Below, in pieces: positions 1,280-49,601 of a DNA stretch of 64,000 nt (position 1 is its first letter; the number at the start of each line of letters is the position of its first letter). The stretch lies in the IMG/VR virus record IMGVR_UViG_3300025033_000013. The stretch is one strand, 5' to 3'. Below the pieces are notes generated by a model. It was given only the letters and a program-made list of their open reading frames with translations, searched no databases and was not told the DNA's origin. A program made the position numbers and the translations under genes. The DNA comes from an uncultured virus (IMG/VR IMGVR_UViG_3300025033_000013) (Duplodnaviria > Heunggongvirae > Uroviricota > Caudoviricetes).

Positions 1280-1321
1280 TGCATTAAAACGACACCACAA
1301 CAATAAATAAACAACATAAAA

Positions 1322-1588: not shown

Positions 1589-1643
1589 AAGTCATAATTT
1601 TACGATTGTTTATTATTGTCCGTTATGCTCCATTGCTAAGGAA

Positions 1644-2781: not shown

Positions 2782-5700
2782 TTACCGCTATTTTTAAAAG
2801 TGGGTAACACAGTATATAAAATATAGCTGTTTTCGCTTCCCACTTGGTTAATATTCTATTTATTTAATTCAGCTCTTAATCGTTGCTTTTCGGCTGTTTA
2901 CACGCTACATTTCATATACTCGGCACGTTAGCCACAATACCCTAACTGACATTTAAGCCATTCATTACAATCACTTTCAGTTCCTTGATACACGCAGTGC
3001 CCATTTTGTTCTACTTGGTATGTATTATTTATTAGCCATTTAACCTCGTACTTATCATCTAAGTAAGAAGTACTGTGGCTAACATCAAATAAAACCAATA
3101 AAAGGTTTTTTGCCTGTTCCGTAGTTATTACATCATTGGCAAGTTCATCTGCTATTTTTAAAATTTGTCGTTTCATATCTTTTACTGTTTTTATTTGCAA
3201 AACGTTAGCAAACATTTACACTAACAATATCTCGTCTGCTTTCTAAATCAAGTCTATCAAACCTTTTTTCTACGTCATTTTTATTCTTACCTTCCAAGTA
3301 AGTTGTGTGTAATGGTTCTAAATTTCCATCCATTAAAAATTCAATCTTAAAACGTTTGCTAACAATGTGTATAGCAAATGCCTTTTGTATTCTTTTGATA
3401 ATTTGTTTCATAATTTCAATATTTTGTATTATTAATTAAGTTCTGTGTAGGCACTTGCCATACACTCGTCCGTTAGGCACAATAAAAATTACTACCATTG
3501 CGTAAATACTTGTTCAAATGTGTAATCAAAAAAGTACATCATGTAAAACACTTTGTACCCTATCCAACATATCGCCTGATACATCACTAATCCGAATGTT
3601 AATGGAATTGAATATTTAGATATATCCCACCATGTTATTTCACCCAAATCAGGCAATATTCGCTTTATTACCCACCATGTACCAATTATTGGTATCAGCA
3701 TCTTATAAATATCGTGTTTTACTTTTTGTTCCATATACGTAATTTTTACAGATGCCTAACAGCAAGTATAAAACATGCCTGTCGTGCATCTAAGTTAATA
3801 TTTATGTTAATTTCAAATTCATTGTTCCAATCAAAGTTTGTGTTGGCACGTTTTATACTTGCGTACCGTTAGCAGAAATAAAAATTACTGCTTTCGTGCT
3901 TCAATTTTAGCTTTCCACTTTTCATAACTTATTCGTTCTCGTTCTGCTATTTTACTTGGTGCGTGTTTGCCACAATACCAATTATTATTTTCAAAGTATT
4001 TAGCATTAAACCCACATATTTCATCAGAAAATCCGTTTATCATTTTACTCATAATCTGCCTACTTGTTTTGTCATTTACAGTAGCAGAACAAATATGTTT
4101 TTCTTTCATAATCCGTAATTTTTACTATCTGCTAACAGCGTATATACAAGATACGCCTACAAGCATTTGTTTATAATTGAAATTTCGTTAAGGCGTACCT
4201 TGTATATACGCAAAACGTTGTGCGTAATGCTAAGATTTGCACTTCGGATGCCGTTTTTTGTCTTTAACCCACTCTTTAAACTCTTTTCGATAATAAGCAA
4301 ACTCAACAATTATCCAAGTAGTTTTTATCTGCCTACCTAATTTATCAAGTAGAAGTTTACTTAAATATCCTACTGCTACTACGCTTCCAATTATTGCAGA
4401 AAGCCAAAAAACTACTAATCCAATCCAATAATAAATTTGTTCCATCGTTTTGATTATTAAAGCACTACGCACAACACGCAATATAAAACATGCTGGGTTT
4501 CTGCGTTATTTAAAGTTTCGTTCATTCTATTAAGTTATTAGTAATTTGATAGTTATGTGGTTTCTATTCCACCACGTTTCATACACAACCCGTTACCACC
4601 AATTAAAGGTTCTCAACCATTCGGAGTATTTCTAAAACAGCCTCACCTTTAAAATGGTTTACTTTATATTGTTCATTAGACCATCTTATTTGTTCTGCTT
4701 TTTCTTTTTCAAACCTTGCTTCATCTGAACATCTATTTGGTTTATATTCTTTCTTTTCCCATTCATTTTGTCGTTGTAAATAATTGTTTTTTTCAACTGT
4801 GTAGTGTATTATTTTATCCTTGATTAAGGAAATCATTTTCCATTTCAAATATCCTTTGTAAATTTTAAACATAATTATTAAATTAACTGGTGGTAACACA
4901 GGCTAAAAAACATAGCCAATAAAGTTCCTACCTATTTTGAAACGTGATTACAAGGCTACGTTTCTTAGCCTCATCGTTGTGTGCCATTAACGCAAACGGT
5001 CTTTAACCTCTTGCTCCAATAGTTGTTTTGCTTTTGTTTTGCAAGTATTGCATTCAATGTAAGAGTACATTACACCGTTTGCACACCATTGAAAAGTTTT
5101 ATTTCTGATGTTACTTTTACATATTGGTTTATTATTGCTATCTACCAAATGTGTTTTTGTTGTTGTTTTTGTGTTTGCAAAATATCCAGTTCTCATAATT
5201 CTAAAATTAACGGCACACAACATTGTATATAGTTAATGTACCAATGAAGGTCAGTGCTTAGTTTAATAGTTTGTGGTAGGTGCACTAACCATATACCTGT
5301 CCGTTATAAAACATAAAATTATTAAGCAAAGATTGTTTCTTCGCCTATTTTAAGTTTCCAACCATTATCAAAACACCAATCTTTAATTTCTTCATCTGTT
5401 GCATTTGAAAAGAAACAATCCATAAACTGTTCTCGTGTTCCTTCAAACATATCACCATTTTCAACTACAATCCAAGTTTCTAAGTTCATAATTTTACGAT
5501 TTTATAACAACAAATATAAAACATTTAAATCAAATTTCCAAATATTTTATCACTTATTTTTATTTTTTAATTATTTTTAGTTATTAATCTGAAACTTGCT
5601 GTGTACTTGCACGCAAATTTCCTTACACGCAAAACGTTGGCACACATTTGAAAAAAAAATGATGATTTATAAAAATAGAAATTATTTTAATAATACATTT

Positions 5701-7121: not shown

Positions 7122-8041
7122 TTTATTTATTTGGGTTTTATAACTTCACCTAGAAGTTTTATTTTAATTCTATAAAGGCACTACTGCAAACATCGATTTG
7201 TAAAAATTGCTAATTATGTTTAATTCCATTTGTTCTGGTTTTTTAATTATTTTTATTTATTAATCTGAAAATTGCAGTGTACTTGCACGCAAATTTCCTT
7301 ACACGCAAAACGTTAGTCGCAATTTAAAAACGCCTTAATGTTTGGTAAGTCTCTTATGTGGTCTGCTGCTACTACTTTTCTATGGTACTCCCATCTATAA
7401 TCCTTAATGGCATTTTTATAATGTCTAATTTTCTTAGGTGGTTGCACTCGTCTACTAAAGTTAGTTGCATACATATTCAAACACCAATCTTTCATAGTAG
7501 GTAATTCTTCAGAAATTAAAGCTTGACCTTCTTCGCAGGGGACTAAATAAAAAACCGACCCTAATAAAAGATTTTAGTTCGTTAAGTCTGCTTTCTGCTA
7601 TATAAAAACTTGTGTACATAATTTTCCGTTTTTTTAACTAAGTTTATACTAATCCGTTATGCCTCATTTGCCAACCCACGCTTATGAAAATCATCCTGTA
7701 TCATAAATTCAGTTGTCAAGATATCCCCGTTGCTTATCTGTATCTGAAATTTATTACAGTATTTTAATCTAATTAACTGAATTATTTTACCTCCTTTTCT
7801 TCCAAATCTGTCAGTCCATTTTGGAATGCTTTCTCCTAATCTGAATCCGTAAAGTTTCTTTGTTCGTGTCATTTTTAAAGTTTTATACCACCGCACAAAA
7901 CGAACGCATAACAATGTATAAAAACAATAGGCGTGTCCGTGCAAGTAGGTTGTTTATATTCATTTAATTAACTCTTTCTGGTTGCGAAGTTTAGCGTTTT
8001 AAATCGCCTACTATTCTTATACTTACCGTTAGCCACAAGTG

Positions 8042-8554
8042 CTACGATAGTGCTTCGTAATAAAGATTGTTGCGATTAAATTCAACAACCGAAGAATTAC
8101 CTTCGTATAGAATTTTTGCTTTTTCTAACATATTTTCATCATTAATTGAGTTTTTAATTGCTAATGCAAAATCAGTATTTGATTCAGCTATCCATTGTGA
8201 ATTTGTAGGGACACAACATATAATAGCTTCTTCATATTCTGAAATTATCATACCAGTATAAAATCCTTTTAATCCATATTTCATAACAAATTCATCAGCA
8301 TTACACCAAATACAAACACAATTTTTATCACGTAACAAATAAACCCACGTTGAATCAATTACAAATTTGTTAAATCCAAGTAATCCTTTTTCTGTTCCGT
8401 GTCCTAACATCACAATTCTATCGTGTTCTTTTATTTGTTCTTTCAACACTTTTTTTGATGTGTTTGTATTGATAACAGTCCAATCTTTATCCTTGTATAT
8501 TTCACACAAGAAATCGGTTGTTGAATCTTTCGGATGTATTACTAATGTTTTCAT
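8042..8554 (-). CDS. hypothetical phage protein
   Basis: 170 aa ORF filling a cassette (MLGHG motif). Confidence 0.75.
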   Translation of the reverse strand: MKTLVIHPKDSTTDFLCEIYKDKDWTVINTNTSKKVLKEQIKEHDRIVMLGHGTEKGLLGFNKFVIDSTWVYLLRDKNCVCIWCNADEFVMKYGLKGFYTGMIISEYEEAIICCVPTNSQWIAESNTDFALAIKNSINDENMLEKAKILYEGNSSVVEFNRNNLYYEALS

Positions 8555-9100
8555 TTTAAATTTCGTTAATTAAACCGCACCATATGGCTAACATGGTATA
8601 TAAAAAATAGCCTATGAAAGGTCAGTACATAATATCAAAGTCTGTGGTTAGGCTACTTTTCATATACCTGTCCGTTAGCCACCATTTAAGATGAAGTGGC
8701 TTTTACAATATCACGTTCTTTACTTATTTCAAAGTCATAGTGATAGCTTTCGTTTGTCAAATGTGATAGTGCGTAACTAATTCCATTTTGTCTAATATTT
8801 ATACCAGTTACAAGTCTCTCACATTGTTCAGGGTCTGTTTTTAAATAAACACTATCCCCAATGTCAAAATGGAGTATGTGCTTTTCAAAAACGGTGGCTA
8901 ACACTGTATAACCGTAATTGGCTGGTTTAGTGCTTAATCCATCGTCTGTGCTTTTTATTTTACTTTGTTTTTTATCCATAATTTTCGCTTTTAAATCGCC
9001 AACTAGCGGTTATACTTTAACGTTGTAAAACATTAAAACGATTTTACAACACGGTATATAGTTTATGCCTAATTCCGTGCTGTATAAAAGTTTTGTGCTT

Positions 9101-9403
9101 CTAATCTTTTTCTTTTATTTTTTCTTCCTCCCTTAAAATAATATCTCTAAACATAAAAACTTTAGCTACAGATTCTGGCATCATACGAAGTTTGTTTTTA
9201 ATAGCTTCAAAATCTTCCTTCGTTTCAGCACTTTCAATTTCAGCTTTATATAGTTTCCTATAATGTTTTTTAAGTTTATCAATAGCTTTATCTAAAGCAT
9301 CGTCCAATTCGATGTACTTTTTGTTTACCAAATAAGTGCTTTTAGTTATTTTCTTTTCTGAAAGCATTTTATCATTCCAGTCTAAAGTGTATCCACCTCT
9401 CAT
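9101..9403 (-). CDS. hypothetical protein located inside an attC-like loop
   Basis: 100 aa ORF between arms GGTATATAGTTTATGCC and GGCACAAACCATATACC. Confidence 0.7.
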   Translation of the reverse strand: MRGGYTLDWNDKMLSEKKITKSTYLVNKKYIELDDALDKAIDKLKKHYRKLYKAEIESAETKEDFEAIKNKLRMMPESVAKVFMFRDIILREEEKIKEKD

Positions 9404-10438
9404 AATTTTAGTTCTTTTGCCCTCGCTAAAAAAATAAAAGAAAAAGGGCGGTTAATAATTAAAAGGTTCGTTTTTCAAAAGGCACAAACCATATACCTAT
9501 CGTTATAAGCAATAAAAATTAAACATACACCGCTACTACTGCTAATATCACATCTCCACCACCAAGCCAAGTTTTTGTTTCTAATCGCTTTTCAAGTTCT
9601 TTAAACGTAAATTTTGTAGCATAAAATTGATTGCTCCAATCTTTATTTTTATCATCCCAAAACTTGTCTTTTGTTTTATTCCAAATTACCCAATTCATAA
9701 GTTTAATTTTTACAGCTTATAACAAAGGCTAAAAAGCAATTGCAACTAAGCGTGTTATCAAGCAGTATTTGTTATAGGCAACTGCTTTTAGCCTCAACCG
9801 TTACCCACCATTTGAAGAACGTACTTTCACAATACTTCCGTCAGGCATAAATGCAGGTACAGGAACTACATCACGCTTTCTACCTGTATATCCACATTCA
9901 TGGCATCCACAACCTTTTTGTGGTGTTTGTTGCATTTCTTTTTGTTCTGCACATCCACTACAAGCGTGGCTATACTTGTAAGGGTAAACTAATTCACCGC
10001 AAAACTCTTCCCATTTATGCCTTTTGTCAAGTTTTAGTTTTTTAACGGCATCAGCCACCGAATCAAAAACGGTGGGTAACACTGTATATACGTCAGTTGC
10101 AGTTTGGTGCTTATTCGATACTTTTTCCATTCTATTAAGTTTTCTTTTAAATTGATACGTTCGTGCTTCTAATCGCAACCGAACGCATATACTTCCCGTT
10201 ATGCACAAGTGGCTACATCCGTTTCCTTTTTCAACTTTAGTCCTAATTCATCAGGCTCTAAATAAAATACAGGTGCTCGAAAACCACAAGCACACCATAC
10301 ACCATAGCAATCTTGATAACCTTCTGGTCCGTGCAGTTCGTGTCCACTTTCCTTTTCTAAATGCGAGTATGGGCATTCGTATTTACTGTAATCTGCTTTA
10401 TTTTTCATAATATTTGTCTTTTAAGTCCGCCACCAGAT

Positions 10439-10502
10439 GCATAACAGCACCTAAATCGCAACTCCGCTACGCTCCGCAGCGTTTAGCTGCATCACGTTAT
10501 AG
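10439..10502 (+). repeat. short (~64 bp) attC-like site
   Basis: GCATAACAGCACCTAAATCGC...GCGTTTAGCTGCATCACGTTATAG; size and layout match a classical minimal attC. Confidence 0.85.
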
Positions 10503-10508
10503 CCAATA

Positions 10509-11594
10509 CTACTTTTGTGCTTCGATTGAACTTTCGTAAGAAAAAGAATTTAAAAAATTTTCCCCTCTCAAAAAAGAAAAAATAAAAGAAATCACATCCA
10601 CAGTCCAGCCATTACCAAGCGCCTTAATTGCTTGTGTGTCTGAAATTGAGTTTGTATATCCATCAGGTACAGTTTGCAATCTTTCACACTCTAATCTTGT
10701 TAGTTTTCTAATTACACCCTCAATCTCATATAGTCCCGTTTTTCCACCAATCCCACCGCTATTTGCGTTTAGTGTTGCTGATTTTCCATTGCTTGAATAA
10801 ACTCTATTTCCTTGTGAAAAATTACGCTGTAATAATTTTCCATTATCAAGCCAAAGTTTATGTGTTGGTTTCATTACACCACCCAAGCAAACTAATCCAG
10901 AGTTTGAAGAATGTTTGTCAACAGGTATAAATAGCAAAGTATCTTTTGCAACGGTTGTCATTGCATTGCTTTTTTCTGTACCGTTCAACTCATATTTCTG
11001 AATTACTTTCCCATTCTCATCGTATCTACCTCTTTGTGCTAAACCTAAACTTTGCAATCCATCTTCGGTAATATCTTTTAGTAGGATGGTTTTATCGTTT
11101 GGTAATCCTTTTACTGGTATGTTTGTCCAATAATACCTAACTCTATTTTGTGCTGATACTAAATTTGAGTTTATCATTATTGGCTCTACACCTAAATAAC
11201 TTGAAATTATATTTTGGTATTCCTTTTTCATCTTTACATTTTCCAATAAAAAGTAAGTCGGATTACATTCGTTTTTCAATCTCACAAACTCAAAAAACAG
11301 TTTACTTCTTGGGTCATCAAAGTTTAGTTGCTTCCCTGCAAATGAAAACCCTTGACAAGGGCTTCCACCTATCAATAAATCAATCTTTGGTAAGTCAGCA
11401 CCTTTTACAGTCAAAACACTTCCTAATTGCTTTGTATTTGGATAATTTGCTTGTGTTACTTTTATTGGTGATGGCTCAATTTCAGAAGCAAAGTAATTTT
11501 CAACTTCAATTCCTTGTCGTTCTAACGCAATCTGTCCACAGCTAATACCATCAAACAAACTCAATACATTTATTTTTTCTTTTCCCACGCTCAT
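10509..11594 (-). CDS. DNA (cytosine-5)-methyltransferase
   Basis: Motifs SLFDGISCG (I), GGSPCQGFS (IV), LLENV (VI), QNRVRYYW (VIII) and LGNGW (X). Confidence 0.95.
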   Translation of the reverse strand: MSVGKEKINVLSLFDGISCGQIALERQGIEVENYFASEIEPSPIKVTQANYPNTKQLGSVLTVKGADLPKIDLLIGGSPCQGFSFAGKQLNFDDPRSKLFFEFVRLKNECNPTYFLLENVKMKKEYQNIISSYLGVEPIMINSNLVSAQNRVRYYWTNIPVKGLPNDKTILLKDITEDGLQSLGLAQRGRYDENGKVIQKYELNGTEKSNAMTTVAKDTLLFIPVDKHSSNSGLVCLGGVMKPTHKLWLDNGKLLQRNFSQGNRVYSSNGKSATLNANSGGIGGKTGLYEIEGVIRKLTRLECERLQTVPDGYTNSISDTQAIKALGNGWTVDVISFIFSFLRGENFLNSFSYESSIEAQK

Positions 11595-13688
11595 TTTTTA
11601 AATTCTTTTTTTAGTTCTTCGATTAAAGTTTTGTACTAATTAAACCGTACTGGCTATAACACGTGCTATATGCAAGTTTGCCATTAAGTTTGTTGTAACT
11701 TGACAATTTCTACAAGGCAAACCTGACATATAGCACCATCCGTTGTAGGCAATTAAAATGCTACGGATGGTAAAGTATCTTTTTACAATCTTCGCAATAT
11801 TCCACGAGTTCAGTTGCTGTTCTGCGACCTTTGTGTTCGCATTTTAACTGTTCGCTTCGCCCTACAACAACGGGTATAGTTAATTTTTTAACTAGTACCT
11901 TTAATTCTTCCGTTCTTACACTAACACCAGTCAATTCTTCTTTATCCAATCCTAAACAACTAATCTCGTATTGCAATTGTCCTATTTTATTTTCTATTTC
12001 TTTTATCATAATTTCTGTTTTATTTACCCGTTAAAAAACTAACCATACCCAAAACGTTAGCAACAATAATTAGAATTGTGCTTCTGGAACAGTATATGGT
12101 AATGTTTTGGAATAGCTTAATTCCCATTCATCAGTTCCTCTTCCTATTAATGTTGGTATGTGTCCAATCATATTAAATATCAACTGTTTTGGTTCAACAA
12201 AAACCACATCACTTCCAATACAAGTATGTTTTACTTCTACAATAGCATCTTCATCCAATAAAATATTTGTTTGGTTTTTGATTGACCAAAACTTAGTTCC
12301 TTTGGGAATTAATCTATTTTCTCCGATTTTAATTTCGTTCATAAAATATTACTGTTGCTAACAAGGTATATATGCAATACCTTATTAAGGTTTATACTAA
12401 TATTCAAAGTTCGTGCAAAGGTACTGCATATATACCCAACCGTTGGCACACATACTAAGAAATGTCCGTTATTTCAGTAGTTGTCCTCCAATTCAGTTTA
12501 GGATGTTCATCTTCAAAGTAAGCAATAGCTGATTCCCTGTTTGGTGCTTGTACATTTATTACAAACTTCACTCCGTTTGCCATTCCAGAAAATCGGAAAG
12601 TACGTGTGCCAACACCCAATAAACGCAAAACTTGGTCTGCGAATACATTGGGCGCAAGGTCATCTATCAAAGCCTGTATGTACATCTGTTCTATTTTCTC
12701 TTTCATCGTTCTGCGTTTATTTTTAACGTTATCTTCAATTTTTGCTTTCCCACCCATACCGCTCAAGTACAGGAGTCAGCTTTTGAAGATGTTGCTCATT
12801 CAATTCCCGCCTCCCCTGCAAGTAATGGCTAAGGGTTTTAGTAGGAAGCCCTGCCTCACGTTCCAAACAACGAAGCGAAAGGCAAGGTCTTTCTTTTAGC
12901 CAGTCTTTCATTCTTTAGCTATTTCTAACGCTTTAGCTATTTTTCCATCCAATACCAAACCGCATACCTGAAAACATTCTTCGGTGGGGAGGTCTTTCAG
13001 CCGTGGGCTGTCCTTACCAAAGCGTTCGGTCATGTTCTTTTCTGCCTCTCGGTAGGCTTCCCGCCTATCTTCGTGGTATTGGTAAAAACCTTGCACCAGC
13101 TTATGGTTAAGCATTGTGCATTTCCCCCCGTCATTGCCGTATATAAACCACAATTTGCGAAAGGCATTGAGTTGCTCGTCTGTCAAATTCATAGTCCAAT
13201 TGATTTAGCTGTCATTTTCATGTATTCTTTGAGCGGCATTTTAGCCATTTTTTTTAAACCTTCTTTGATACATGCTTTACAGTATATGGCAAAGACAGGT
13301 TCAATTGCATTCTTTGGTACTTCAAATTCATAAGAGCATTTTTTACATTTCAGCATAACTTTATATTTTAGTGCTTGTACCAACAAAGGTACGCATAATA
13401 TTTGGAAGTACCAAATCAGGTACAAATATATTTTCCCACCGCACGCAAAAACAGAAGATAACAACACCTAAAACGCCATGCCCTGCGGGACACAGGCGTT
13501 TAGCTGCGATACGTTACCATTAATACTACTTCTGTGCTTCTAAATGTGCCTTATTGATTAAGTAGCTTATATAACCGCTTATATTTTCAGTTCCTAATAC
13601 CAAAACAGATAAATTAACTGCTTTCTGTTTGGTATCTTCAGTCATTCATATCGTTATTTTTTATTTTTTGTCTTAATTTATAATAATA

Positions 13689-13944
13689 AAGTTCTTTGAG
13701 TATCAGCCCAGTCGCCTGTTATCAAGCCTGTCAACACATTCTTTTCAGTGCATCGGTTTTAATTCCTGCATAACTATGACACCACCGTTTATTTAGGTTG
13801 AACACTTCGCCAAGTGTTCGGGTTTTATTTTCCTAAAGCGTACTTTTTCCCTATCTTATATAGCGTATAACCTTCATAACTCTCATCTCCATAGACCGCA
13901 TCTTGTTGCTTTCACGTTTTCGGTTTTGTTTACTCAAAGAACTT
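13689..13944 (-). ncRNA. candidate structured ncRNA carried as cassette cargo
   Basis: 14-bp terminal stem AAGTTCTTTGAGTA/TACTCAAAGAACTT, internal hairpin GAACACTTGGCGAAGTGTTC, no ORF, and a start just after TATATTTG (13948-13955). Confidence 0.6.
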
Positions 13945-14880
13945 ATGCAAATATAGTAAATAATTTGTAAATACAAAAGGAATATTAAAAAGTTTTGTAA
14001 TAATTTTACCGTACTAATGGTAACAACGGCTATATGTCCATTGCTCGTACCTCACAACGGCACATAGCCAAACCGTTACCCCACATTATAAGCAGGGAGT
14101 ACAACTTTCATACTTAGATTAAAACCTTTTGTTTCTTCTTTAAAGTGGTCAAGTGCTTTACCTAAAGCCTCGTGTTCATTTGAAGCATCAGTTATTAAGC
14201 ATCGCAAAAGGTTTTCTCTTGCGTTTACAAATACCAATGAAACAGAATAACGTGGGGTAACATTGTATAAAACCAATAGCTCTTGCTCTAGGTCATTTAT
14301 ACACATGTTTCCTTCATCAAATCTTTCCATTAATTCAGTTATCTTTTCTTTCATGTCGCTACTGTTTTTATACCTTGCCGTTAGCAACAATTATGTGGCT
14401 TTGGGGTGTTCACATTTCTCACGTCCGCATTTACATTTAGTGGCACTGCTTGTGCTATTGTCAGGGTCGAAAGAGCCACATAAAAGATTGCTAACATTGT
14501 GTATAGGTAATTTTTGCCCTACGTTAATACCTTTTAAGTACATTTCTGCTTTTTTTTCAACTCTTGCTCTTATGTTGTGGTCATAGTCATTTTCTTGCAT
14601 CCACATATAAAAGTCTGTTAATTCTTTAATCTTATCCATAATTCAGTTTTATTTAATCGGGCAAAAACTACCCATACACTCGTTCGTTAGCAAACATAAA
14701 AATTATGCTTCCAACCATTGTATTAAGTAATCTAATGTATCAAAAGAAAAAAGTTCAACATCATATTCATTTATAGTTCCACTTCCATCAGAAAATATCC
14801 TGAATTCAACACATGTTCTACCACTTTTTTCTTCAAACTTGTGTATTAATTTAAGTTTATCGTTAATTAACCGCACCAGC

Positions 14881-14934
14881 AGGTAACAAGGTATAAACCA
14901 CATTAAAACGATGGTTTATACCCGTCCGTTAGCC
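14881..14934 (+). repeat. minimal attC-like site with CATTAAAACG loop
   Basis: AGGTAACAAGGTATAAACCA-CATTAAAACGA-TGGTTTATACCCGTCCGTTAGCC; the same loop occurs in the site at 21988-22041. Confidence 0.8.
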
Positions 14935-16675
14935 ACCATTTGAGAAACGTTCTTTATAATAAGTTTCCCCATCTCTTGGAGCATCTATATTACACCTAGA
15001 TTTACATCCATTATTTACGGCATCAACTATTTGCTTTTTCTCTTTGTTCAACCAAATTTGAATATCTGCATCTATATTATTTCTCAAAGGGTCATTCAAA
15101 CTTGTATAAGTTTTAATATAATCAATTAATTCTTGTACTACTGTCATAATAAAAAAGGTTTCTAACAATGTGTATAAAAAATAGCCTAATTAAGTTTTGT
15201 AATAATTCCGAACGCCTATGTATGGGCTAATTTTCATACACTCGTCCGTTAGCCGTAATTCAATCACGCCATGTTACGTGCATTGCTTCGAGCTTATCTC
15301 CGAGCAGTGGCGAACCATAGTTTTCAAACTTCATTTTTAATAAAGGATATACTTCTAAATTGTTTGGGCATTGTATTTTAAATGGTAGCTTACGTTTATC
15401 TTCCGAAATCTGTAATGCCTCTAAAATGAAGTCATTCAAACTTTTTTCTTCATCAGATGAACTACGGCTAACATCGTATAAAAAAACATTGCCAGCTTCA
15501 TCGGTAATTTTAAATTCGTATTTCATATCAAGTTTATTTTAAGTTTAACATTCGTGTTTCAAAATGGCAACGTTTCTTATACGTAACCGTTATGAGTAAT
15601 GCTAATTATCCCTTTCAAAAGTCGATTTTCCTTTTAAATTCGTTCCGAAAATTTCATTTAAAGGGTCAATAACATCTTGAGAAACTCCCATTAATTTTAA
15701 TCTTAAATTAGAAATTTCAGTAGTCATTTCTCTTTCCCTTTTTGAAGCATTTCTAACAACTTCATTTAACCCTTCATATCTAAATTCTGCGTGTTCATAA
15801 TTTTGCTTAAGTAGTGTAACACTTTTTAAAATTGTCCATTTATGAAAGAATTTTGGAACTCTTTTATAATACCACCAAAATAAAATGTGATTTGCTTTTA
15901 ACAACACCGCACTACTCATAACAGTGGTTATAAGCAATTGCCACTTTTGTCTTAAATTTAAAGACCGTTTTGTTCTTGTTTTCATTGTTTATTAATTTGA
16001 AGTTTAGGCAGTTTTATTGGCAACTGCTTATAGCTACAAAACGTTATAAATAATAAAAATTATTACCTAAGTATATCAACATAATAATTATCGTTATCAT
16101 AACCATATTGCTTCTTTGCAGTTTCTGCTTCTTCTTTTGTATTATATGGTGCAAGTATCACACCATTCTTATCTTTTCCATGTGCAGGTTCTTTTTCATA
16201 AACTGCAAATTGTTCTTTCTTTTTATACATAATTTTTACATATTTATAACAACAAATATAAGCAATTATTTCATTACTTTTAATAAATATTGTTGTTTAA
16301 TAATATTTTTACTCTTTTAATTAAGTTTAGTTAATAACTACTTATATTTGCAACCGTTAGCATTCAGCTTAAAATGCTCCGAGATGCCGTAGAGTTGAAT
16401 GAGTTCTTTCTTTATCTAACTCTAAATTCTTGCGTTCAATATCTCCTAAGTCTGTCTGAGATAGTTTTTCAACAACATAACGCCAATAATGATTTAAAGC
16501 ATCAATTGTTATTTCTGTTTGCCAATCGTTCAATTCATTCATATTTTTAAATATTATTGTTTAACAAAAGCCGAAATGCTAACAAAGTGTATAGCAAATA
16601 AGCCATTAAAGTTTGTACTAATTTGATAGTTTCGTGCGTGGCTTACTTGCCATACACTAAACGTTAGCACCAATA

Positions 16676-17209
16676 CTACGAAAGTGCTTCGATTTCAAGT
16701 ATCATATCTTTATTTTTTACAGCAAAAACAAATTCACCTACATATCCTGCGTCTTCTCCGTAAATAGCATCGCAACTATTCAATTCAGTTAGAAATTTGC
16801 TTGATAAGTATTCTCCCAAAACATTTGAAAATAAATCAAGTTCTTCTTTGTAATTTGATGTAATTGCTATATCACCGATTACGAATAATCCTTGTTGTCT
16901 ATTAAATCTATTTCCGTTTTTACCAGTTTTTTCACTATAAATTTTATTCCATTTATCTAATTTTAGAATATTATAATTTGTTGTATCTATGGTTATTTTA
17001 TAACAATTATCACCGAATTTTTTAGCGTAATCTAAGTTAACCGCTAAATAATCAACACCACTTCGGTTTTTATCGTAAACACCATCAACACATTTATACA
17101 CTTTGGTTTTACCAAAGTTTTTAACTTTATCTATTAATTTTCTTATTTCCATATTTTTACTTATAAATTTACCCCCAATTTCCATTTTAATATCTTCACT
17201 ATGTTTCAT
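16676..17209 (-). CDS. cassette protein, possible ADP-ribosyltransferase-like fold
   Basis: VYK...YLAVNLDYAKKFG..Y pattern; the C-terminal IEALS comes from the cassette frame. Confidence 0.4.
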   Translation of the reverse strand: MKHSEDIKMEIGGKFISKNMEIRKLIDKVKNFGKTKVYKCVDGVYDKNRSGVDYLAVNLDYAKKFGDNCYKITIDTTNYNILKLDKWNKIYSEKTGKNGNRFNRQQGLFVIGDIAITSNYKEELDLFSNVLGEYLSSKFLTELNSCDAIYGEDAGYVGEFVFAVKNKDMILEIEALS

Positions 17210-19305
17210 TATCTATTTGTTAAGTTAATTCTCTGTTCACGCAACACGCCATAAACTTTTCGTTAGTGGCAAGGCTAAAGAACGACCTAAATATCTTCAC
17301 CACGTTTCAATCTTTTAATTTTGTGTTGCAATTCATTGATAGTAACAAGATGAAGTTGAGAATTAACTCTTTCAAATCGTTCTTTAACTTCTTGAGATTT
17401 CCAGTCTTTCAGTTCTTTTTTCAGTCTTTTAATTTCGTCTGTCATTTTAATTTTTTTTGTGAAAAGCCCAGCCACTAACAGCGTGTATATGCAAGTGGCG
17501 GTTCTGTGGTTTATTCAAGTTTAGTTCTTCTGTCAAACTTTCTGCGTAATTGAAAAGTTAGAGCTTCTAATCGCCCCCCTGACATATACACGCAAAACGT
17601 TAGGCACAATAAAAATTACTCAGTTTGTCTTACTATCATTGAAGATAAAACATTAATAATATCAGTGCTTGTTAATTCACATTTAGGTTCTTCTTCACTT
17701 TTATAGTCTAATATAACTTTGAGAAGTTTTATCTTCAATTCTTCTTTTGCTCTAAATTTCATCATTTGTTTGTCTTGGTCTTTCATATCCGTAATTTTTA
17801 CAGATGCCTAACAGCAAGTATAAAACATGCCTATCCTGCATCTAAGTTAATATTTATGTTAATTTAATGTCCATTGTTTCAATCAAAGTTTGTGTTGGCA
17901 CGTTTCATACTTGCGTAACGTTATATTCAATTTTGGGGAAACCATTGTGTATCTGTTAATTCAGACCGCATCCTTCTCAGATGGCAAATAGTTCAAGGAG
18001 TTTTACTGAAACTCATCCCCAAAACTGAAATATAACAACAAATATAAAACATTGCTGTCGTTTTTCAATTATATTATACGTTTAATTTCAAATTTTGTTA
18101 CACTAATTATAATTTTTGTTACAACGTTTTATATTTGCAACCGTTATGTGCAAGCCTAATTAGCGTCATAGTCAGCTTTTGGCTCAGGTTTCCAATCGCC
18201 ATCAGCATCTAAATGAATAGGCGGCCAACCATGTTTCCTAACCATTAACATTCTCATAAACCTGCTCCACATTTTTACCAAACCGTTTACAGCAAAATAG
18301 GCCGCTCCGTTTAGTAATATCATCATTCCTACAAATGGCCAAAAGCCACTAAATGCGATTTCAATTATTTTGTTTATCATTCTATTTGAGTTTTTGAGAA
18401 GGCCAGCACATAACAGCACTATGGCGGGTTTCTCGGTTAATATTAAGTTTAGTGTTTCAAATCAAGTTAAGTGCTTACAGATAGTTCAGCGTTCCAAAAT
18501 CCGCCACATCGCCTATCTGCAAACCGTTAGCACCAATGCCATCAGACCTTCGTATCGACAGCAAAACAGTAAGATAATTCTTCTGCTAATTGCCTCATTT
18601 GTTCATACTCATCATCTTTTAATCCTTCATTGGTGTATGTCATATAAAGTTCTTTCATTTTAGAAAGCCTTACTAATTCTTCTTCGGAAATGTTATCGGG
18701 TAATTTTACTGTTTTTGCCATTGTATTTTTATTTAAGTTTTAATATTTAATTTCGTGTAGGCACTGGTGCTAACACTATGTAAAAAACATTGCTGGCGTT
18801 CGTGTTCCTTCCCAAACAATCCATATTCTTCTTGTTCGTGCAGTTTTCCAAATAGTTCTTCATTCATATCGCAACGATTTTTTACATTTTTCCGTTATAA
18901 GCCATTTAAGAAACTACACGTCTTTTCATAAAGCAAGTCGATAGCTACTTGTTTAGCATCATAAGTTTGGAAACGAACATCTGAACCTCTTTCTGCTTTT
19001 TCATTAGCTATATCCATTGCATCTATAAATAATTTCAATTTGGTAATACTATAATCCTTTATAGCTTCTTTTACTTTGTTATCTGGTATTTTATTATACA
19101 TTTTATTTAAAATTTGTGAAGAAAAACGGCTTATAACAGCACCTAACCAAAATTGGCGGTTCAGTGGTTATATCAACGTTTATGCTTCGATTATACATTT
19201 TTTTTAAATTCAAGTTTTGTGCTTCGTAATCGCCAACTTCGGTTAGCTGCAAATCGTTGTAAAACATTAAAACGATTTTACAACAAAGGCTATAAATAAT
19301 AAGGC

Positions 19306-19494
19306 TTAGGTTCGTGGTTCATCAGGTAAAGCCATCCACCAAGTTTCATCCTCATTACTGTATTTAATCATCTTCGTATCAAGGATGCTTATTGCCATAC
19401 TCGCTTGGCTTTCATTCATTATTCTGTAAACCAACATCTTTTCACCATCAATCTCGCAAGATGGCTTTCGGTCTTTTAATTTAATCCATTTCAT
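19306..19494 (-). CDS. DUF551-like small phage protein inside an attC-like loop
   Basis: MKWIKLKDRKP...TWWMALPDEP. Confidence 0.65.
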   Translation of the reverse strand: MKWIKLKDRKPSCEIDGEKMLVYRIMNESQASMAISILDTKMIKYSNEDETWWMALPDEPRT

Positions 19495-22112
19495 AATTCA
19501 AAGTTTTGTGTTTTAAAATCGCCTTACTATTCATAGCCTATCTACGTTAGTGGCAAGTGCTAACTCTCCGCTTCAATTCAGCTTTGTAGTCTGAAAAATT
19601 AAGTTGGCTTTTAGCTTCTTTGCCATAATAAGTTTCCTCATCATACCACATATCTTCAGCACACGAGCCACCGCCCATTCCTACCGTTAATCCTTCCTTT
19701 GCTTTCCGTTCAATCCATTTAATGATATTTTTCAAGTGATTCGTTTCTAAATCAGTCAACTTAATTTTTTTACCATCTTTTGTTTTATGAAATTTCATTT
19801 TCGTTTAATTTACCGCACCAGCCACTAACAGCGGTTTGGTGCTATTATTTTACCTATTAAATTTATCTAAAACTTGAAATGTCTGCAAGGCAAAATAACA
19901 GACACCAAGCCGAAAAACGTTGTGCAACATTAAAACGATTGCACAACACGGTATATAGTTTATGCCTAATTCCGTGCTGTATCAACGTTTAGTGCTTCTA
20001 ATCTTTTTCTTTTATTTTTTTCCACCCCTCTCAAGATTACGCTTAACAATTCTGTAATTATCGTTTTCAAATTCTTCTTTTTTCAGTCTGCTAAAATGGT
20101 ACTCTAAACTTTGCTTATCAAGTTCAGTAATTTCTTCACACATAACAGGCAAAGAGTCGAGAATATTCTCGGCTCTTTTGTTTGCTTATTTAAAAACCAG
20201 TAAGCCATTATTCAAAAGTTCTTGTTTCGATTATACAGTTTTTAAATTTTTCTGGGTCTTCGTCAATTAAGCTTTGTAAATAATCTTTATCCTCTTCCAT
20301 TTCAGGTTCCCAATTATTAGGATAAAATTTCATTTCTATTGTATCAAAGCTTTCGTCTGTTTTTGTGTTTAAGATGTAATGTAAAGTTTTCATAATTTTG
20401 TGTTTTAAATTGTTATTAATTAATTATTACACTACAAATATATAACTTATTTTGTAACTACCAAAGAAAAAAGCAAAATATTTTAATTATTTTGTAAATA
20501 ATTGCTTTTACAAGCATTTGCCCACGCTCAAAAAAAATAAAAGAAAAAGGGCGGTTAATAATTAAAAGGTTCGTCTTTCAAAAGGCAAATAACCTAATTC
20601 AGTATTTAACCCAATGTGTTTTTCGAATATTTACTCTGCTTCTGTCATTTCATTAAAGTTTATTATTATTAAATCGCACTAACCATACAACCGATACGTT
20701 ATAACCAATACTACTTATCCGCTTCGATTGTAGATAATAATTCATTAACCATTTCATCAACCAAAGAGATACCATGTAAGTCTTTAGTTTTTTTATAATC
20801 ACCCACATTGATGTTTGTAGCTTTGATTTCTTTTTCATCATCACTAATAGTGATTTTAATTGTTAAATTTTCCATTTTACTTGTTTTTAATTTTATCATT
20901 TATTATTTTTGCTAATTCATAATCTTCATTATCAATTGCGTTTTTTAGTTTGGTTTCTAAACTCCTTGGTATTATAACTGCAACTAAAAAAGAACTATCT
21001 ATCTTAATTATAACATCATCACCATTGTTAATTCCATCAACTATATCATTTCTATCTACTTTACAAGTATCATCTATTGCGTAGATGTTTCCGTTTAATT
21101 TAAAAACATTTACTTCGGTAAAATAAACATTATCATTTTCAATATAAAATATATCTGAAGTGTAATTTTGTTTTTCATTACCAAATATTAATAAACTATT
21201 ATCCATAAATTAATTTGTTAATGTCATTTCGTTAATTACTTTTCTAACGCTTTCCATCCAAGCACCTAATATATCTTTTCTAAAATTAAAAATAGACATA
21301 TGTGCATCCCAAATTTCTTTTGGAACTTCTACTTTAATAATTCTTCTATTCTCCATAATTCATTATTTTACAAATATACTAATTATTTTCCAATTAATCA
21401 AGTTTTATCTTAAATTACCGTACTGGTTATAACAAGGTGTATAAGAAAGTTTGCTATTAACAGTGTGGTAATTTGAAAGTTTATACAAGCAAACCTTCTC
21501 ATACACCCAACCGTTAGCACCAATACTACGAAAGTGCTTCGATTTAAAGTTTATTGCTATATTTTGTAAAAAATCCATCACTACCAATTCTTAAAGTATT
21601 AACAATTTCTTTATGTCCACGAAAATCAATAATTTCAACATCTTCTTTGTTTCTATCAATGTAAACCCTTATCGGCTCATCATTTTTATAAAAATTAAAA
21701 AAATGTTCTACGGTTAAATTTTCGTTATGATGGATTATTTCATCATTAGGTATTATAAACACATTGTCACACTCTTCTAAAATTACGCCAACTTGTGGGC
21801 TAATAAATAAACACTGTACATCATCACTAATCATTTCAGTAATTAATGGTTGTAACTCATTTTTAATTGCATCTTTTTTATTGGTTTTTTCAAACCAGTT
21901 CCATTGTTTTTCCATAAATTTATTTTTTTTACAAATATACTAATTATTATCCATTTAATCAAGTTTTATCTTAAATTACCGTACTGGTGCTAACAACAAA
22001 TATATTGCATTAAAACGACAATATATTTGCAGCCGTTATGCTCCATGCCTTAGTTCAGTCCTTCTATTTAACATTTGTGATGAAAAACAAAAAGAATTTT
22101 CCCAACGCACTT

Positions 22113-22700
22113 TTAAAAACCTTTTAATTTATATGCTTTTACAAATTTAGCACCTTTTCCTTTATTTTTCAAATTTATTTCATGTTCATTTGGAAATGAT
22201 AAATTCTGAATTATTGTTTGAATAATATCTATTTCAGATAAAGGAACACTAAGTTCCATTATATAAGGCACTACATCATTATCCCAGTTCTCACTACCAA
22301 TCATTAAAAGCATATCTCCATCAATAGCCCATTTATATGGTGTAACGTGTTCCCCAATATTTTCAATGTCTATCAGTTTTTTATTTTTAACACCAACTGC
22401 TCTATACATTATTGAAGGATTTGGTAATTTTTTATAAAATTCCACCCTTTCTTTTAATTCTTTAAAAGCTTCTTCTTCATCTTCAAATCCTTCCCACCCA
22501 AAAAAATCAATACATTTCAATATTTTATCATCATCTAAATCGTGGAATGTTTTTATTGAATTTTTAAAATCTAATAATCTTTCTTTATATGGCTTTACAC
22601 CTTTAAATGAAGCATATGTGTCATTTTCAAGTTCTTCTTTAATAATTTTAGCAACAAATTCTTTTAAGGTAGTTTTAATATGGTTTTTCATCTCACTCAT
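22113..22700 (-). CDS. cassette protein with IKTTLKEF N-terminal motif, possible ADP-ribosyltransferase-like fold
   Basis: Likely start at MSEMKNHIKTTLKEF; MYRAV...NEHEI pattern. Confidence 0.45.
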   Translation of the reverse strand: MSEMKNHIKTTLKEFVAKIIKEELENDTYASFKGVKPYKERLLDFKNSIKTFHDLDDDKILKCIDFFGWEGFEDEEEAFKELKERVEFYKKLPNPSIMYRAVGVKNKKLIDIENIGEHVTPYKWAIDGDMLLMIGSENWDNDVVPYIMELSVPLSEIDIIQTIIQNLSFPNEHEINLKNKGKGAKFVKAYKLKGF

Positions 22701-24079
22701 AGTATTTTCTTTATATATATAAATATTCCAAATTAAAATTTCCACCCTAAAATTCTTTTTGTTTTTCTTTATTGTTCCAAATTAAGTTTTGTGCTTAATA
22801 ATTCGGCACGAGAGCCACAATACCCTAACTGACATTTAAGCCATTCATTACAATCACTTTCAGTTCCTTGATACACGCAGTGCCCATTTTGTTCTACTTG
22901 GTATGTATCATTTAATCCAATCCTTATACATTTCACTTTCCCTGTGTGCTCTTACCATATTAGTTTTTCCACATCTGCATTGTGTTACTAGAAAATTTGT
23001 ATTGTTTTCCATAGGTATATCATACAATTTATTTTCAAATTTACACTTATGAAAACGATACATAACAGCATATAACCAAAATAGCGGGTTAGGTATGTTA
23101 ATTGTCCATTTTTCTTTCATATCAAGTTTATTTTTATATTCAACATTTGGTTTTAAAGTCCGCTACTTAGGTTATATGCAACCCGTTATACACTATTTAA
23201 CGAGCAAGTTTCAATTCAACAATAAATATTTCAACTGTTTCCTTTTCCAAATCATATAAATTCTTAGGATGTTTACTGTTACAGCACTTATCAATAAAAG
23301 AATCTATTTCATCTTGTGATGGTTTGTTAATGTAAGCGTTTTTACTATAATATTTGGTTTTTCCATCAAATGAAGCATATTTTCCTTTTGCACAAATTTG
23401 ATATAAAACTGTGCCTAACACCGTGTATAAAACATGGTGGGTTTCTGCGTTATTTAAAGTTTCGTTCATTCTATTAAGTTATTAGTAATTTGATAGTTTC
23501 GTGCGTGGCTTACTTGCCATACACTAAACGTTAGCACCCATTTGACCAATCATCAATATCCTCATCTTCAACTAATTCAATCTGACTATTACTATCTTCT
23601 ATTATTTTATTCAACATACCTAATCCATAAGAAGTTGCAGTTCCATAACTCTTTTTATGACATTTGTAGCAACTACCGCTAAAACCGATAAAATAATAGA
23701 AATCAGCATCTTGTTCAACTTTTTCAATTCCAGAATTTAACTTCCACCTGTCACCATTTAAATAATCACCACTCCAAGTTCCAAAAACTTTATAATAATT
23801 GTTTGATAGTTTTAATATTACCCACTTTTCAGGGGTTTCGGTTATATTTCTTTTCATAATTTTAATTTTTAAAAACGTGTTATAACAAGGTATATATGCA
23901 AGTGGGAGTTCTGTTGTTTATTCAACATTCGTTCTTCTATCAAACATTCTGTGTAATTGAAAGGTAAGTGCTTCTAATCGCCACCTGGCATATACACGCA
24001 AAACGTTATGTGTAAGTGTTCAGTTCATCGTTCTAACCAACATTTCGGTTGAAAAATTTAAAAGAAAATCCCACCCACT

Positions 24080-24640
24080 TTATTTAATTCTTTTTAATTT
24101 GATTTTATCATAATTCCATATAATTATTTGATGACCATCTCTGCTATAATATGGTTCTTTGCCATCAAAGCCTTTTGATTTTAAATATTCTTGTTCTAAA
24201 AAATCAATACTACTACCAGTCATCGGGTCTATATATGTTGCATATTTTTTATATTTATCAGTTTCAATAGGTCTAATTAAATCATTCCCATCTAAATTCT
24301 TAACAACATCACCATTAGGTTTAATTACCTTATCCATTTCATAAAACCCATTTTTAATTCCAAAATCAACGAGTTGTTCCCTATTTGGTTGTTCATTTGG
24401 TTTGGCTATTCTTAATTCCTCAAAATTTTCTATTACATATATATAATCACGTTTTCCAATAGATTCTATACCCCAATCATCAATATTTTTTGTTACATAA
24501 AAACCTTTACCCAATTGTCCTTGTTTCGGGTTATAGTTTTTATCAATTTTTAAATTTGGATTATCGGATAAATGATAAACTCTATTCTCATTCAAAAATT
24601 CTCGCATCGTTGTTTTTATAAATTGTTTCAAATCTTTCAT
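24080..24640 (-). CDS. cassette protein with IKTTMREFLNE motif, ADP-ribosyltransferase-like
   Basis: VYHLS...GQLGKGFYVT...LKSKGFDG...QIIIWN pattern typical of ART-like phage domains. Confidence 0.55.
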   Translation of the reverse strand: MKDLKQFIKTTMREFLNENRVYHLSDNPNLKIDKNYNPKQGQLGKGFYVTKNIDDWGIESIGKRDYIYVIENFEELRIAKPNEQPNREQLVDFGIKNGFYEMDKVIKPNGDVVKNLDGNDLIRPIETDKYKKYATYIDPMTGSSIDFLEQEYLKSKGFDGKEPYYSRDGHQIIIWNYDKIKLKRIK

Positions 24641-24767: not shown

Positions 24768-24980
24768 GTGAACTACCCACCCACGCCAGAGGCGATGGGT
24801 TGGGCTTCGGGGGTCACAGACTCACCTAATGGTAACGCCTCATCCCGTTTTTGTTTATACTCCGACTGCATACCACAACCAGAGTTAATAAAAATATACA
24901 ACTTTATTTTTAAAAGTCAAATCTTTTTGTCGCTTACATCCCATTCACGCTAAAGCGATGAATGGGTTTTACGCTCCTTT
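24768..24980 (-). mobile_element. IS200/IS605-derived MITE inserted into an attC-like left arm
   Basis: Right end GTGAACTACCCAC and left end hairpin CCCATTCA..TGAATGGG-TTTTACGCTCC; near-identical to 44088-44300. Confidence 0.9.
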
Positions 24981-25066
24981 ATAAAACATACCCAATCAAG
25001 GTCTGTGGTTTATATCAACTGTTTACTATGGCTACGTTTCATACACACAACCGTTAGCTGCAAGTG

Positions 25067-27557: not shown

Positions 27558-27906
27558 GATGTAGTTTTTAATTATTATGATACAAAGATAAAAAGAATGT
27601 TTGATATATCCTAATAAAATCTTGGTTTTTTTTCTTCACAGATTTGTTTTATTAAAAATCGCTTATAATTTGGATTACTTTTTTCCATGTAATACCATAA
27701 TCTACTAGCATTATCATTATTACTCCATGAGGTGCCGACAAAGGCTTTAACTTTTTTCTTTAATTTTCTGGGAATACGAATATTGCCATAAAACGGGCTG
27801 ATTGTTTCAGGTGCTATAAAAACGAAAAAACCAAATAATTTTTAATTTATACGAAACGGAGCGTAAAACCCATTGGTCGTTTCACCAATGGGATGTAAGC
27901 GACACA

Positions 27907-28311: not shown

Positions 28312-28458
28312 AATGTAGTATTTTGTTTAAATTATTTACAACCAAAGACGAAATGATTTAAACAAAATATGGCATCAAATGAAATAAATTTACAAAAAAC
28401 TTAACAAATCGTATAAAATATTGTACTTTTACAAAAGTTTAGACTATTTAATAATAGA

Positions 28459-46812: not shown

Positions 46813-46886
46813 TGCGGAATGTCGGATTCGAACCGACAGCTCAACCTTGGAAGGGTCACATGTTAGCCATTGGACACCAATCCCGC
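46813..46886 (-). tRNA. tRNA-Gly(TCC)
   Basis: Cloverleaf with anticodon loop CT-TCC-AA and T-loop TTCGAAT. Confidence 0.9.
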
Positions 46887-49572: not shown

Positions 49573-49601
49573 ATATATTGTTTATATAACTATATTCTAC
49601 A

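Follow-up and report, generated by a model that had tools for sequence, protein, structure and literature searches.

How the same DNA frame comes to hold unrelated genes at two places in one genome is the question raised by the uncultured virus record IMGVR_UViG_3300025033_000013 of IMG/VR (Duplodnaviria; Heunggongvirae; Uroviricota; Caudoviricetes). The stretch of 64,000 nucleotides (nt) of this record that was analysed is called the window below. The question bears on the origin of integron cassettes, since how an open reading frame (ORF) joins a recombination hairpin is an open question. A previous inspection of the letters (the sequence-only reading) had described cassette frames with swapped cargo and had proposed a second-tier capture step that inserts genes into pre-existing hairpin frames. 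We consider it probable (about 0.6) that window positions 1-27,004 form a recombinase-less, integron-like cassette array on a large phage, that its cassettes move by site-specific recombination at G/TT (the slash marks the crossover) and that the paired frames are nested cassettes.

The array comprises at least 42 attC-like hairpin sites on the + strand and small ORFs that all lie on the - strand, and it runs off the start of the window, which is the end of the contig. Each site is made up of an A arm (YAAC-N2-4-L'') and a B arm (L'-N4-8-GTTR). The arm motifs were restricted to the + strand and to the first 27 kb of the window, and a constrained hairpin finder returned 52 hairpins on the + strand, 8 on the - strand and 1-7 in shuffled sequences. 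Sites were called by our own arm-motif and hairpin criteria and the list of 42 was curated partly by hand. Two of them are 48 nt long, ten 86-89 nt, twenty-five 113-135 nt and two 195-198 nt, and three nested sites measure 269, 328 and 459 nt; 35 of the 42 thus fall between 86 and 135 nt. All 42 carry YAAC and GTT, forming an inverted repeat with AAC/GTT core triplets as in classical attC sites. A conserved GTGCTTCTAATC-like motif on the + strand adjoins the L' stem, and in 14 of the 42 sites an ORF with an ATG start begins inside the site. An Rfam scan of the window detected tRNAs only.

Little of the cargo could be assigned. Only one of 34 array ORFs matched a PHROG, a family of unknown function, and the cargo with a recognisable function consists of two C5 cytosine methylases (10509-11594 and 25067-26812). 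The second methylase (581 amino acids, aa) matches its paralog at both ends; its Pfam match falls into two stretches, and an insertion of ~230 aa rich in lysine and glutamate separates its N-terminal motif region from its catalytic region. The ORFs 190-666, 22113-22745 and 24080-24640 are paralogs that share an N-terminal ...IKTT(I/L/M)(R/K)EF... segment, indicating that gene families recur within the array.

The smallest sites show the design most clearly. A minimal (M-type) site at 14884-14930 and a second one at 21991-22037, both on the + strand, have the 11-nt sequence CATTAAAACGA as terminal loop, and the former shares 95.5% identity over 67 nt with a site of LR745206.1, the 634-kb record of an uncultured phage. 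Minimal sites from the window, 15 IMG/VR contigs, LR745206.1 and the Polaribacter phage P12002L (23 sites in all) were aligned. The L stem was 96% paired, with compensatory changes at 9 of its 11 pairs, and the YAAC/GTTR core was 97.8% paired, while the four positions just outside the core were only 49.5% paired (31-43% in slid controls). With a crossover inside the core, pairing would be expected to end exactly at AAC/GTT, as seen here. In these minimal sites the 11-bp L stem was uninterrupted and no extrahelical bases were seen, unlike in classical attC sites. The best-fit spacers measured 2-4 nt in the A arm and 4-8 nt in the B arm, instead of the classical 5-6 nt in each.

The extent of a cassette can be read from the bases that flank the sites. 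The 6 nt located 5' of YAAC were complementary to the 6 nt following the GTTR of the previous site at 4.37 of 6 positions on average (14 of 41 perfect, 30 of 41 with at least 4 matches). When they were compared with the bases after the site's own GTTR, which are the start of the next cassette, the value was 2.17, and it was 2.16 in an all-against-all comparison. This complementarity of a cassette's own start with its own R'' indicates that the cassette runs from G/TT to G/TT and that its circular form would close a long R stem, with the crossover placed as in classical integrons. A natural variant was found in the metagenome contig L282, which is identical to window 8674-11744 and carries other sequence beyond both ends. 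The block of four cassettes (8675-11742, + strand) lies between different neighbours there, and the breakpoints fall exactly behind B-arm CGTT (8673-8676 and 11741-11744), with CCGTT preceding the break on both sides; at its left, the block joins a site that is 89% like window 19095-19258.

The ends of homologous segments within the array were also located, using 11 repeat pairs with 44 ends and a tolerance of 12 nt. Sixteen of the 44 ends lay near an R box (~8% expected), eight of them at B-arm GTT and eight at A-arm AAC (~4% expected for each). The site at 23404-23549 is a mosaic, its left part being 89% like 4464-4559 (98.6% over a 73-nt core) and its right part 94% like 16609-16674, which points to exchange within sites as well as at R boxes. 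A 3.5-kb metagenome contig, L285, matches window 7220-10070 at 99.9% and then passes, from 7 nt before a YAAC, into GC-rich unrelated DNA; it is a probable assembly chimera. Sequence signatures and one natural variant show the cassettes to be units bounded by G/TT on either side that have been reshuffled in nature.

Self-BLAST of the window, run twice, showed that 9019-9123 and 19916-20020 are 93.3% identical over 105 nt, and 9416-9484 and 20517-20587 were 94.4% identical over 71 nt. No high-scoring segment pair was obtained by this search between the stretches enclosed by these flanks (292 nt at the first locus, 496 nt at the second), so the claim of near-identical flanks around unrelated cargo held at both loci. 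An A/T-rich inverted repeat also encloses the cargo, as had been claimed. Four exact copies of the 18-mer CTTTTTCTTTTATTTTTT are present in the window, one per strand at either locus: the T-rich arm at 9106-9123 (+ strand) has its partner at 9429-9446, and the same pair recurs at 20003-20020 and 20532-20549. By chance 0.42 copies are expected, and four were reached in none of 100 shuffles. The repeat pairs around the first cargo in the predicted single-stranded DNA fold (z = -2.23; 2 of 100 shuffles as good). Three more metagenome contigs were 100% identical to the window over the 4.8-5.0 kb examined from each, which excludes an assembly artefact.

The first frame forms a putative cassette from G/TT to G/TT at 9023-9502 on the + strand, with arms at 9047-9504. 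It begins with its own 5' end, an 11-nt loop and R'' (hairpin 9022-9050), followed by L'' (9054-9069), a trailer, the cargo, a leader, L' (~9475-9490) and the B-arm GTT (9502-9504). The A arm at 9047 pairs with the B arm at 9504 over a distance of 457 nt, and 11 of 12 L-stem positions match. Between L'' and L', in the place of the variable terminal loop of an attC and hence within the attC-like hairpin, lies the cargo, an orphan ORF of 100 aa (9101-9403, - strand), whose last seven codons, with the tail ...EEKIKEKD, are encoded by the shared T-rich arm. Profile searches with this ORF gave no Pfam family above cutoff and no PHROG, and a protein-based search gave no relative in viral_contigs.

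The second frame (19920-20700, + strand), identified by self-BLAST and read by eye, consists of a hairpin (19919-19947), a left frame to 20020, the cargo (20021-20516) and a right frame (20517-20587). Its right arm has decayed: after 20587 the L' half no longer matches L'', and a foreign B arm ending in GTT (20698-20700) closes the cassette. The cargo here, on the - strand, contains a 61-aa ORF (20208-20393) and a 43-codon ORF (20012-20143) that ends in the shared arm. From 20465 it shows a match to the Bacteroidota promoter-like TTTG-N-TAnnTTTG on the - strand, and its upstream part (~20381-20460) recurs in other viral loci. Replacement almost exactly from start to stop fits the first cargo only. 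There the frame homology stops 13 nt upstream of the ATG and inside the last seven codons; in the second cargo the first ATG lies 124 nt inside the homology boundary.

A further pair had been described as sharing frame and attC around different ORFs, and this was confirmed. The copies at 3473-3868 and 17600-17920 (both + strand) begin with the same 22 nt (3472-3493 and 17599-17620), continue with ORFs on the - strand that differ (3492-3734, 80 aa; 17616-17786, 56 aa) and then have the same leader and attC-like site (3757-3870 and 17809-17922); 3715-3871 and 17767-17923 are 89.8% identical over 157 nt by self-BLAST. The ORF 3492-3734 gave only 13-residue matches in a protein-based search. Shared attC sites with different ORFs are normal in large integron arrays.

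Outside the window, the left frame had no exact match in viral_contigs. A scan of metagenomes for the right frame yielded seven stretches, namely five identical to the window, one true variant (L282) and L285, and none of these seven held a third cargo in the same frame. A homologous left frame (77% identity over 106 nt, T-rich arm included) was found in contig L079, where an unrelated ORF of 68 aa takes its tail, ...EKKIKEKDDNPEPSS, from the T-rich arm. It is general in the array that conserved cassette ends run into terminal codons; three unrelated proteins end in ...EALS or ...EAQK, residues encoded by a 42-nt cassette-start module of which there are seven copies. The frames are recombination hairpin sites plus short conserved cassette ends that extend into the first or last codons.

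What sets the paired loci at 9 and 20 kb apart is the junction upstream of them. At the first frame, R' of the previous site (GTTGTAAAA) and the cassette's own R'' (TTTTACAAC) form a perfect 9-bp hairpin around CATTAAAACGA. This hairpin results from the ordinary complementarity of a cassette's start with its own R'', and it becomes visible here because the segment that usually holds the gene has shrunk to 11 nt. As CATTAAAACGA is also the terminal loop of the minimal sites, it fills whichever loop has no gene. Two of its six exact copies in the window lie in minimal sites and four at junctions (1282, 9031, 19265 and 19928), and each of the four junctions precedes a site that encloses one or more ORFs. 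The third nested cassette (1274-1622, + strand) has an R'-11 nt-R'' hairpin at 1273-1301, an ORF (1322-1588, - strand) between L'' and L' and 9 of 12 L-stem matches; the fourth (19257-19546, + strand) has its hairpin at 19256-19284, an enclosed ORF (19306-19494, - strand) and 11 of 12 matches. The inner inverted repeat is present in two of the four. The paired loci are thus best described as nested cassettes, in which, judging from their layout, the gene occupies the terminal loop of the hairpin and the usual gene position is reduced to the 11-nt loop.

In the loci examined, the hairpin N9-CATTAAAACGA-N9' was found 35 times in viral sequences (21 minimal sites and 14 junctions), twice in LR745206.1 (minimal sites) and once, in a weak form, in a bacterial sequence; its stems covary, and among these loci it is essentially phage-specific. 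Ten of the 14 junction hairpins, which come from other viral contigs, could be scored, the other four having too little flank. In eight of the ten, arms 226-788 nt apart enclose an ORF of 55-220 aa on the opposite strand with an ATG start. One (L057) precedes an ordinary 122-nt site and, as confirmed by reading, has no ORF anywhere in the cassette, and one has no partner arm. The ATG at the end of the 11-nt loop on the coding strand was considered as a general start codon. It was rejected: read by eye, it is the start of a 66-aa ORF at 14903, but at 22008 and 9031 a stop codon comes 6-7 codons later.

The surroundings of the array are those of a phage. The rest of the contig encodes a DNA transfer protein (phrog_1745, 428 bits), two sigma factors, Tpt1, RNA ligases with inteins, a PARP, a phosphoribosyl pyrophosphate synthase, HNH endonucleases and 15 tRNAs. 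CheckV rates the 93-kb record as complete, yet 4.8 kb at the end of a 315-kb metagenome contig are identical to it, and judging from coordinates the true genome may exceed 300 kb. Coordinate arithmetic on a 162-kb metagenome contig places the far end of the array ~11 kb beyond window position 1. A search for neighbours of the sigma factor yielded a second assembly of this phage and nothing else; that assembly ends in an insertion sequence (IS) element. The segment 8500-12000 was recovered from 24 public runs (96-99% of sampled words), 23 of them aquifer or groundwater metagenomes and one from hot springs.

No match to PF00589 was obtained in the 93-kb contig, in P12002L or in the 94-kb phage record G006, which has direct terminal repeats, an estimated CheckV completeness of 100% and the same site family. 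TIGR02249 had no match in the 93-kb contig or G006; on the 93-kb contig there is hence no adjacent IntI with the extra insertion in its CAT domain (TIGR02249 cutoff, 265 bits), as a classical integron would have. A 398-aa ORF at 28459-29655 was considered as an IntI and rejected, being the TnpB of an IS200/IS605 element. In viral_contigs the site pattern matched ~980 stored stretches. In genome_contigs there were ~7,700, overwhelmingly from Flavobacteriaceae and other Bacteroidota and often in arrays. The bacterial relatives examined are mostly marine Flavobacteriaceae, unlike the groundwater runs that hold window 8500-12000. In all five bacterial genomes checked, the best match to the IntI model was a recombinase of ~385 aa below the cutoff, and in three of the five it lay upstream of the array on the same contig. 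It matched the IntI model (cutoff 265 bits) in two pieces of ~115-126 and 80-95 bits. Alignment to XerC-like and XerA structures was contiguous, and to IntI4 it was possible only in two pieces; the bacterial recombinase therefore has no IntI insertion. The window sites probably belong to a family that, by site pattern and gene neighbourhood, stands beside Xer-like recombinases in Flavobacteriaceae and other Bacteroidota. Our literature search, with partial coverage, returned no paper on Flavobacteriaceae arrays with an Xer-like recombinase.

Viral and bacterial members differ in gene orientation. By a simple ORF-length rule, none of 92 viral sites had its ORF on the same strand as the site, 55 had it on the opposite strand and 37 were ambiguous; the corresponding numbers for 94 bacterial sites were 65, 5 and 24. 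All window ORFs run opposite to site polarity, unlike the ORFs of classical cassettes, which are promoterless and lie on the top strand, upstream of their attC.

These observations are consistent with the following mechanism. The recombinase would be supplied in trans, most simply by the host, and would be an Xer-like enzyme. The phage coding strand would be the strand that corresponds to the recombinogenic bottom strand of the bacterial arrays. A circular cassette would take the shape of a dumbbell that has two stems (R and L) and two loops, of which the R-side one normally holds the gene; in a nested cassette it would lie in the L-side (terminal) loop, and the R-side loop would be the conserved 11-nt filler. 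The same frame with different cargo would most likely go back to a recent duplication of one nested cassette, after which ordinary recombination, or else template switching, would have exchanged the content of the loop at the perfect A/T-rich inner repeat of 18 bp. We hold this sequence of duplication and exchange only tentatively, at somewhat less than an even chance.

Several points weigh against the interpretation as a mobile cassette array with nested members. No recombinase has been shown anywhere to act on these sites, which have neither the extrahelical bases nor the 5-6 nt spacers of classical attC (2-4 and 4-8 nt instead). P12002L carries members of the site family, and its minimal site with the CATTAAAACGA loop was identified, via a primer in the supplement of PMC9892861, as P12002L_attC1; in the available text of that paper, five of the six phage sites have a verified IntI1 junction and this one is the exception. 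The variant L282 is a single natural rearrangement, known from 5 kb of contig, and the route of cargo exchange is entirely something we infer. Gene conversion between sites is another possible source of the 93-94% identity of the frames. Strict antisense polarity (55 to 0) together with an invariant 11-nt loop hints at an additional RNA-level or protein-binding function, for which the interpretation does not account.

Two other accounts take the cargo to have entered an existing hairpin. According to the sequence-only reading, capture inserts genes at CCC(A/T)C(G/C)C(A/T)C, which would be left as a direct repeat at both cargo edges. Motif-like strings do stand in direct orientation beside the inverted arms at both cargoes, the word CCC[AT]CGCT occurs six times on the + strand of the array and, with up to one mismatch, the motif is found 35 times in the window against 16.5 +/- 4.6 expected, i.e. 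about twofold enriched. Six of the 35 matches are, however, the identical word CCCACCCAC at hairpin positions of IS605-type miniature elements, which inflates the count, and the coding strand is rich in G and A throughout (GC skew about -0.2 on the + strand), which favours such strings. The positions that had been listed as motif pairs proved to be loose C-rich strings. At homology breakpoints, where the proposal calls for enrichment, the motif showed none beyond the 9-kb/20-kb frame pair: 3 of 44 ends lay within 12 nt of it, all three from that pair. At the two methylases the motif covers corresponding codons of paralogs (S-V/E-G near the N-terminus, R-G-E near the C-terminus), and part of it, with the T-rich arm, supplies the codons of the ...KIKEKD tail in the first cargo and in the unrelated ORF of L079. 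The two other nested cassettes of the window (1274-1622 and 19257-19546) and two in L063, all read by eye, have neither a pair of CCC motifs nor the A/T-rich inverted repeat; in other viral arrays a stricter form of the motif is rare (2 in 429 kb). The motif is not supported as a boundary signal and has no demonstrated part in cargo exchange, and capture at it is largely refuted and very improbable. The array, the reused frames and the cargo inside a hairpin stand, the CCC switch falls, and for second-tier capture as such no enzyme, target duplication or intermediate was found; a dedicated capture step is possible, and genes may have been loaded into pre-existing frames, given the ORF-less cassette of the same design in L057. 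A motif-free form of this idea starts from ORF-less hairpins with two short filler loops, either of which receives a gene by a dedicated or semi-dedicated process, e.g. template switching at stalled hairpins or a loop-targeting enzyme. Phage cassettes would then be two-loop dumbbells with CATTAAAACGA as the sign of a vacant loop; empty cassettes would form first and have genes loaded into them or exchanged in them, and the paired frames would be two loadings of one frame. The presence of the same 11 nt in whichever loop has no gene (in viral loci, LR745206.1 and the six window copies), the cassette without an ORF in either loop, one frame with two unrelated cargoes (and a third unrelated ORF beside the left frame in L079) and a perfect 18-bp repeat exactly at the cargo edges are all in line with it. 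Gene loss from a loop would give the same picture, leaving the direction unset, and the inner repeat is restricted to two of four nested cassettes in the window and absent from the two in L063. Genes that only begin in the loop and run out through the arm, as at 14 of 42 sites, fit a gradual drift of gene position equally well. We regard loading as the bolder alternative and an unlikely one.

The palindromes might instead be mainly regulatory or act at the RNA level, as processing sites, terminators or translation-control hairpins, with shuffling by homologous recombination between repeats. Strict gene polarity in viral contigs (0 same, 55 opposite), start codons inside 14 of 42 sites, the GTGCTTCTAATC-like motif abutting the L' stem, the mosaic site at 23404-23549 and the eight homology ends that fall at A-arm AAC rather than only at B-arm GTT all agree with this. 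Homologous recombination leaves unexplained, however, why a cassette complements its own 5' end, why pairing collapses exactly outside YAAC/GTTR and why the L282 breakpoints fall at CGTT with unrelated sequence beyond. In addition, the same site family stands in bacteria in the opposite gene orientation and beside a recombinase, and the coding strand has just five Bacteroidota-type promoter-like matches in 27.5 kb, one of them the match at 20465 within the second cargo. A mainly regulatory role is therefore improbable, and a recombination array with nested cassettes is preferred.

The array presents a series of forms next to one another: genes beside the hairpin, starting inside it, wholly inside it or, in a related contig, absent. 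Together with one frame that holds two cargoes, this comparative series makes models of cassette gain and loss testable. The array also shows that at least 42 swappable cassettes can reside on a large phage lacking a recombinase of its own, with a polarity opposite to that of bacterial arrays, which points to a phage-specific cassette pool, presumably serviced by an Xer-like enzyme of the host. Should loading of empty cassettes be true instead, it would be a concrete route to cassette genesis, and antisense polarity would define a separate phage pool in which the recombinogenic strand is the coding strand.

Other mobile elements and genes were noted on the contig. Three IS200/IS605-type copies are present, at 27842-29663, 56493-59499 and L001 6754-7956 (contig 85090-86280, window orientation), with TnpA Y1 at 27907-28311 and 57777-58181 and TnpB at 28459-29655, 58328-59446, 56509-57138 (truncated) and L001 6754-7956. 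One copy lies directly at the inner end of the cassette array. An element of ~218 nt occurs in four copies that are 85-97% identical (24768-24985, 44088-44305, 52541-52760 and contig 92655-92868), one of them within the array. It begins with GTGAAC, has two IS605-style hairpins and looks like a miniature inverted-repeat transposable element (MITE) or palindrome-associated transposable element (PATE), or like a solo end of TnpB RNA. The frames themselves were considered as an IS200/IS605 MITE of the PATE type and rejected, since the frames are unlike the IS605-type hairpins (CCCACCCACGCC...GGGTTGGG) that 24768-24985 and its copies contain. By Rfam, the 15 tRNA genes lie on the - strand in two clusters (window 46816-62373). 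On the contig beyond the window, the RNA ligase genes contain intein-like (Hint or intein splicing) segments at L001 9283-11230 and L002 1856-2815, and the PARP-domain protein is encoded at L002 6956-8245. The two sigma-70 family paralogs (30911-31765 and 46990-47865) are 82.7% identical over 254 nt.

Among known systems, T4-type PeSL cassettes, which have an early promoter and a stem-loop in each repeat and are shuffled by homologous recombination, provide a first comparison. The array differs in having only five Bacteroidota-type promoter-like matches in 27.5 kb, by a consensus that may not cover a phage-specific sigma factor, and in breakpoints at G/TT with unrelated sequence beyond. Sedentary chromosomal integrons and clusters of attC sites lacking integrases (CALINs; Cury et al. 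2016, PMC4889954), with the Vibrio repeats as an example, are closer: many small and mostly orphan ORFs lie between imperfect AAC/GTT palindromes, the crossover is at G/TT, the cassette 5' end complements its own R'' and near-identical sites surround unrelated ORFs. Unlike them, the window has no IntI, its bacterial relatives have an Xer-like recombinase that lacks the IntI insertion, extrahelical bases were not observed, spacers measure 2-4 nt against 4-8 nt and genes are antisense to site polarity. A CALIN is defined by at least two attC sites, as called by IntegronFinder or HattCI+Infernal, and no intI nearby; by our own criteria the array has at least 42 sites and no recombinase. The pattern of a Bacteroidota integron-like system, the same sites in arrays with an Xer-like recombinase of ~385 aa upstream and pointing into the array, was found for the site family and the bacterial arrays; the phage contig itself has no such recombinase.

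Elements that insert into attC offer another likeness, as IS1111-attC elements do and as group IIC-attC introns do in the part of PMC3001079 available to us: extra DNA lies inside an attC site. Both of these are self-mobile, with their own reverse transcriptase or transposase and with defined ends, unlike the insert found here, a small orphan ORF without a mobility gene in the terminal loop, the remaining cassette being reduced to 11 nt. In the literature found on attC sites in phage genomes, no gene inside an attC loop was encountered, in searches not aimed at that feature. Phage CALINs are a further comparison: the accessible text of Qi, Rajabal, Ghaly, Tetu and Gillings (2023, PMC9892861) reports attC clusters without an integrase in virulent phages, P12002L with its DNA methyltransferase cassettes among them. 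Compared with these, the window array has at least 42 sites over 27 kb, and no mention of the nested design, the 11-nt default loop or general antisense polarity was found in the text of that paper available to us. For classical attC sites, the part seen of Nivina et al. (2016, PMC5027507) gives lengths of 57-141 bp, extrahelical bases in the L'' arm and ~5-6 nt of unpaired central spacer per arm; here, sites that hold a whole gene in the terminal loop are 269-459 nt long, and in the viral contig L082 they reach ~790 nt.

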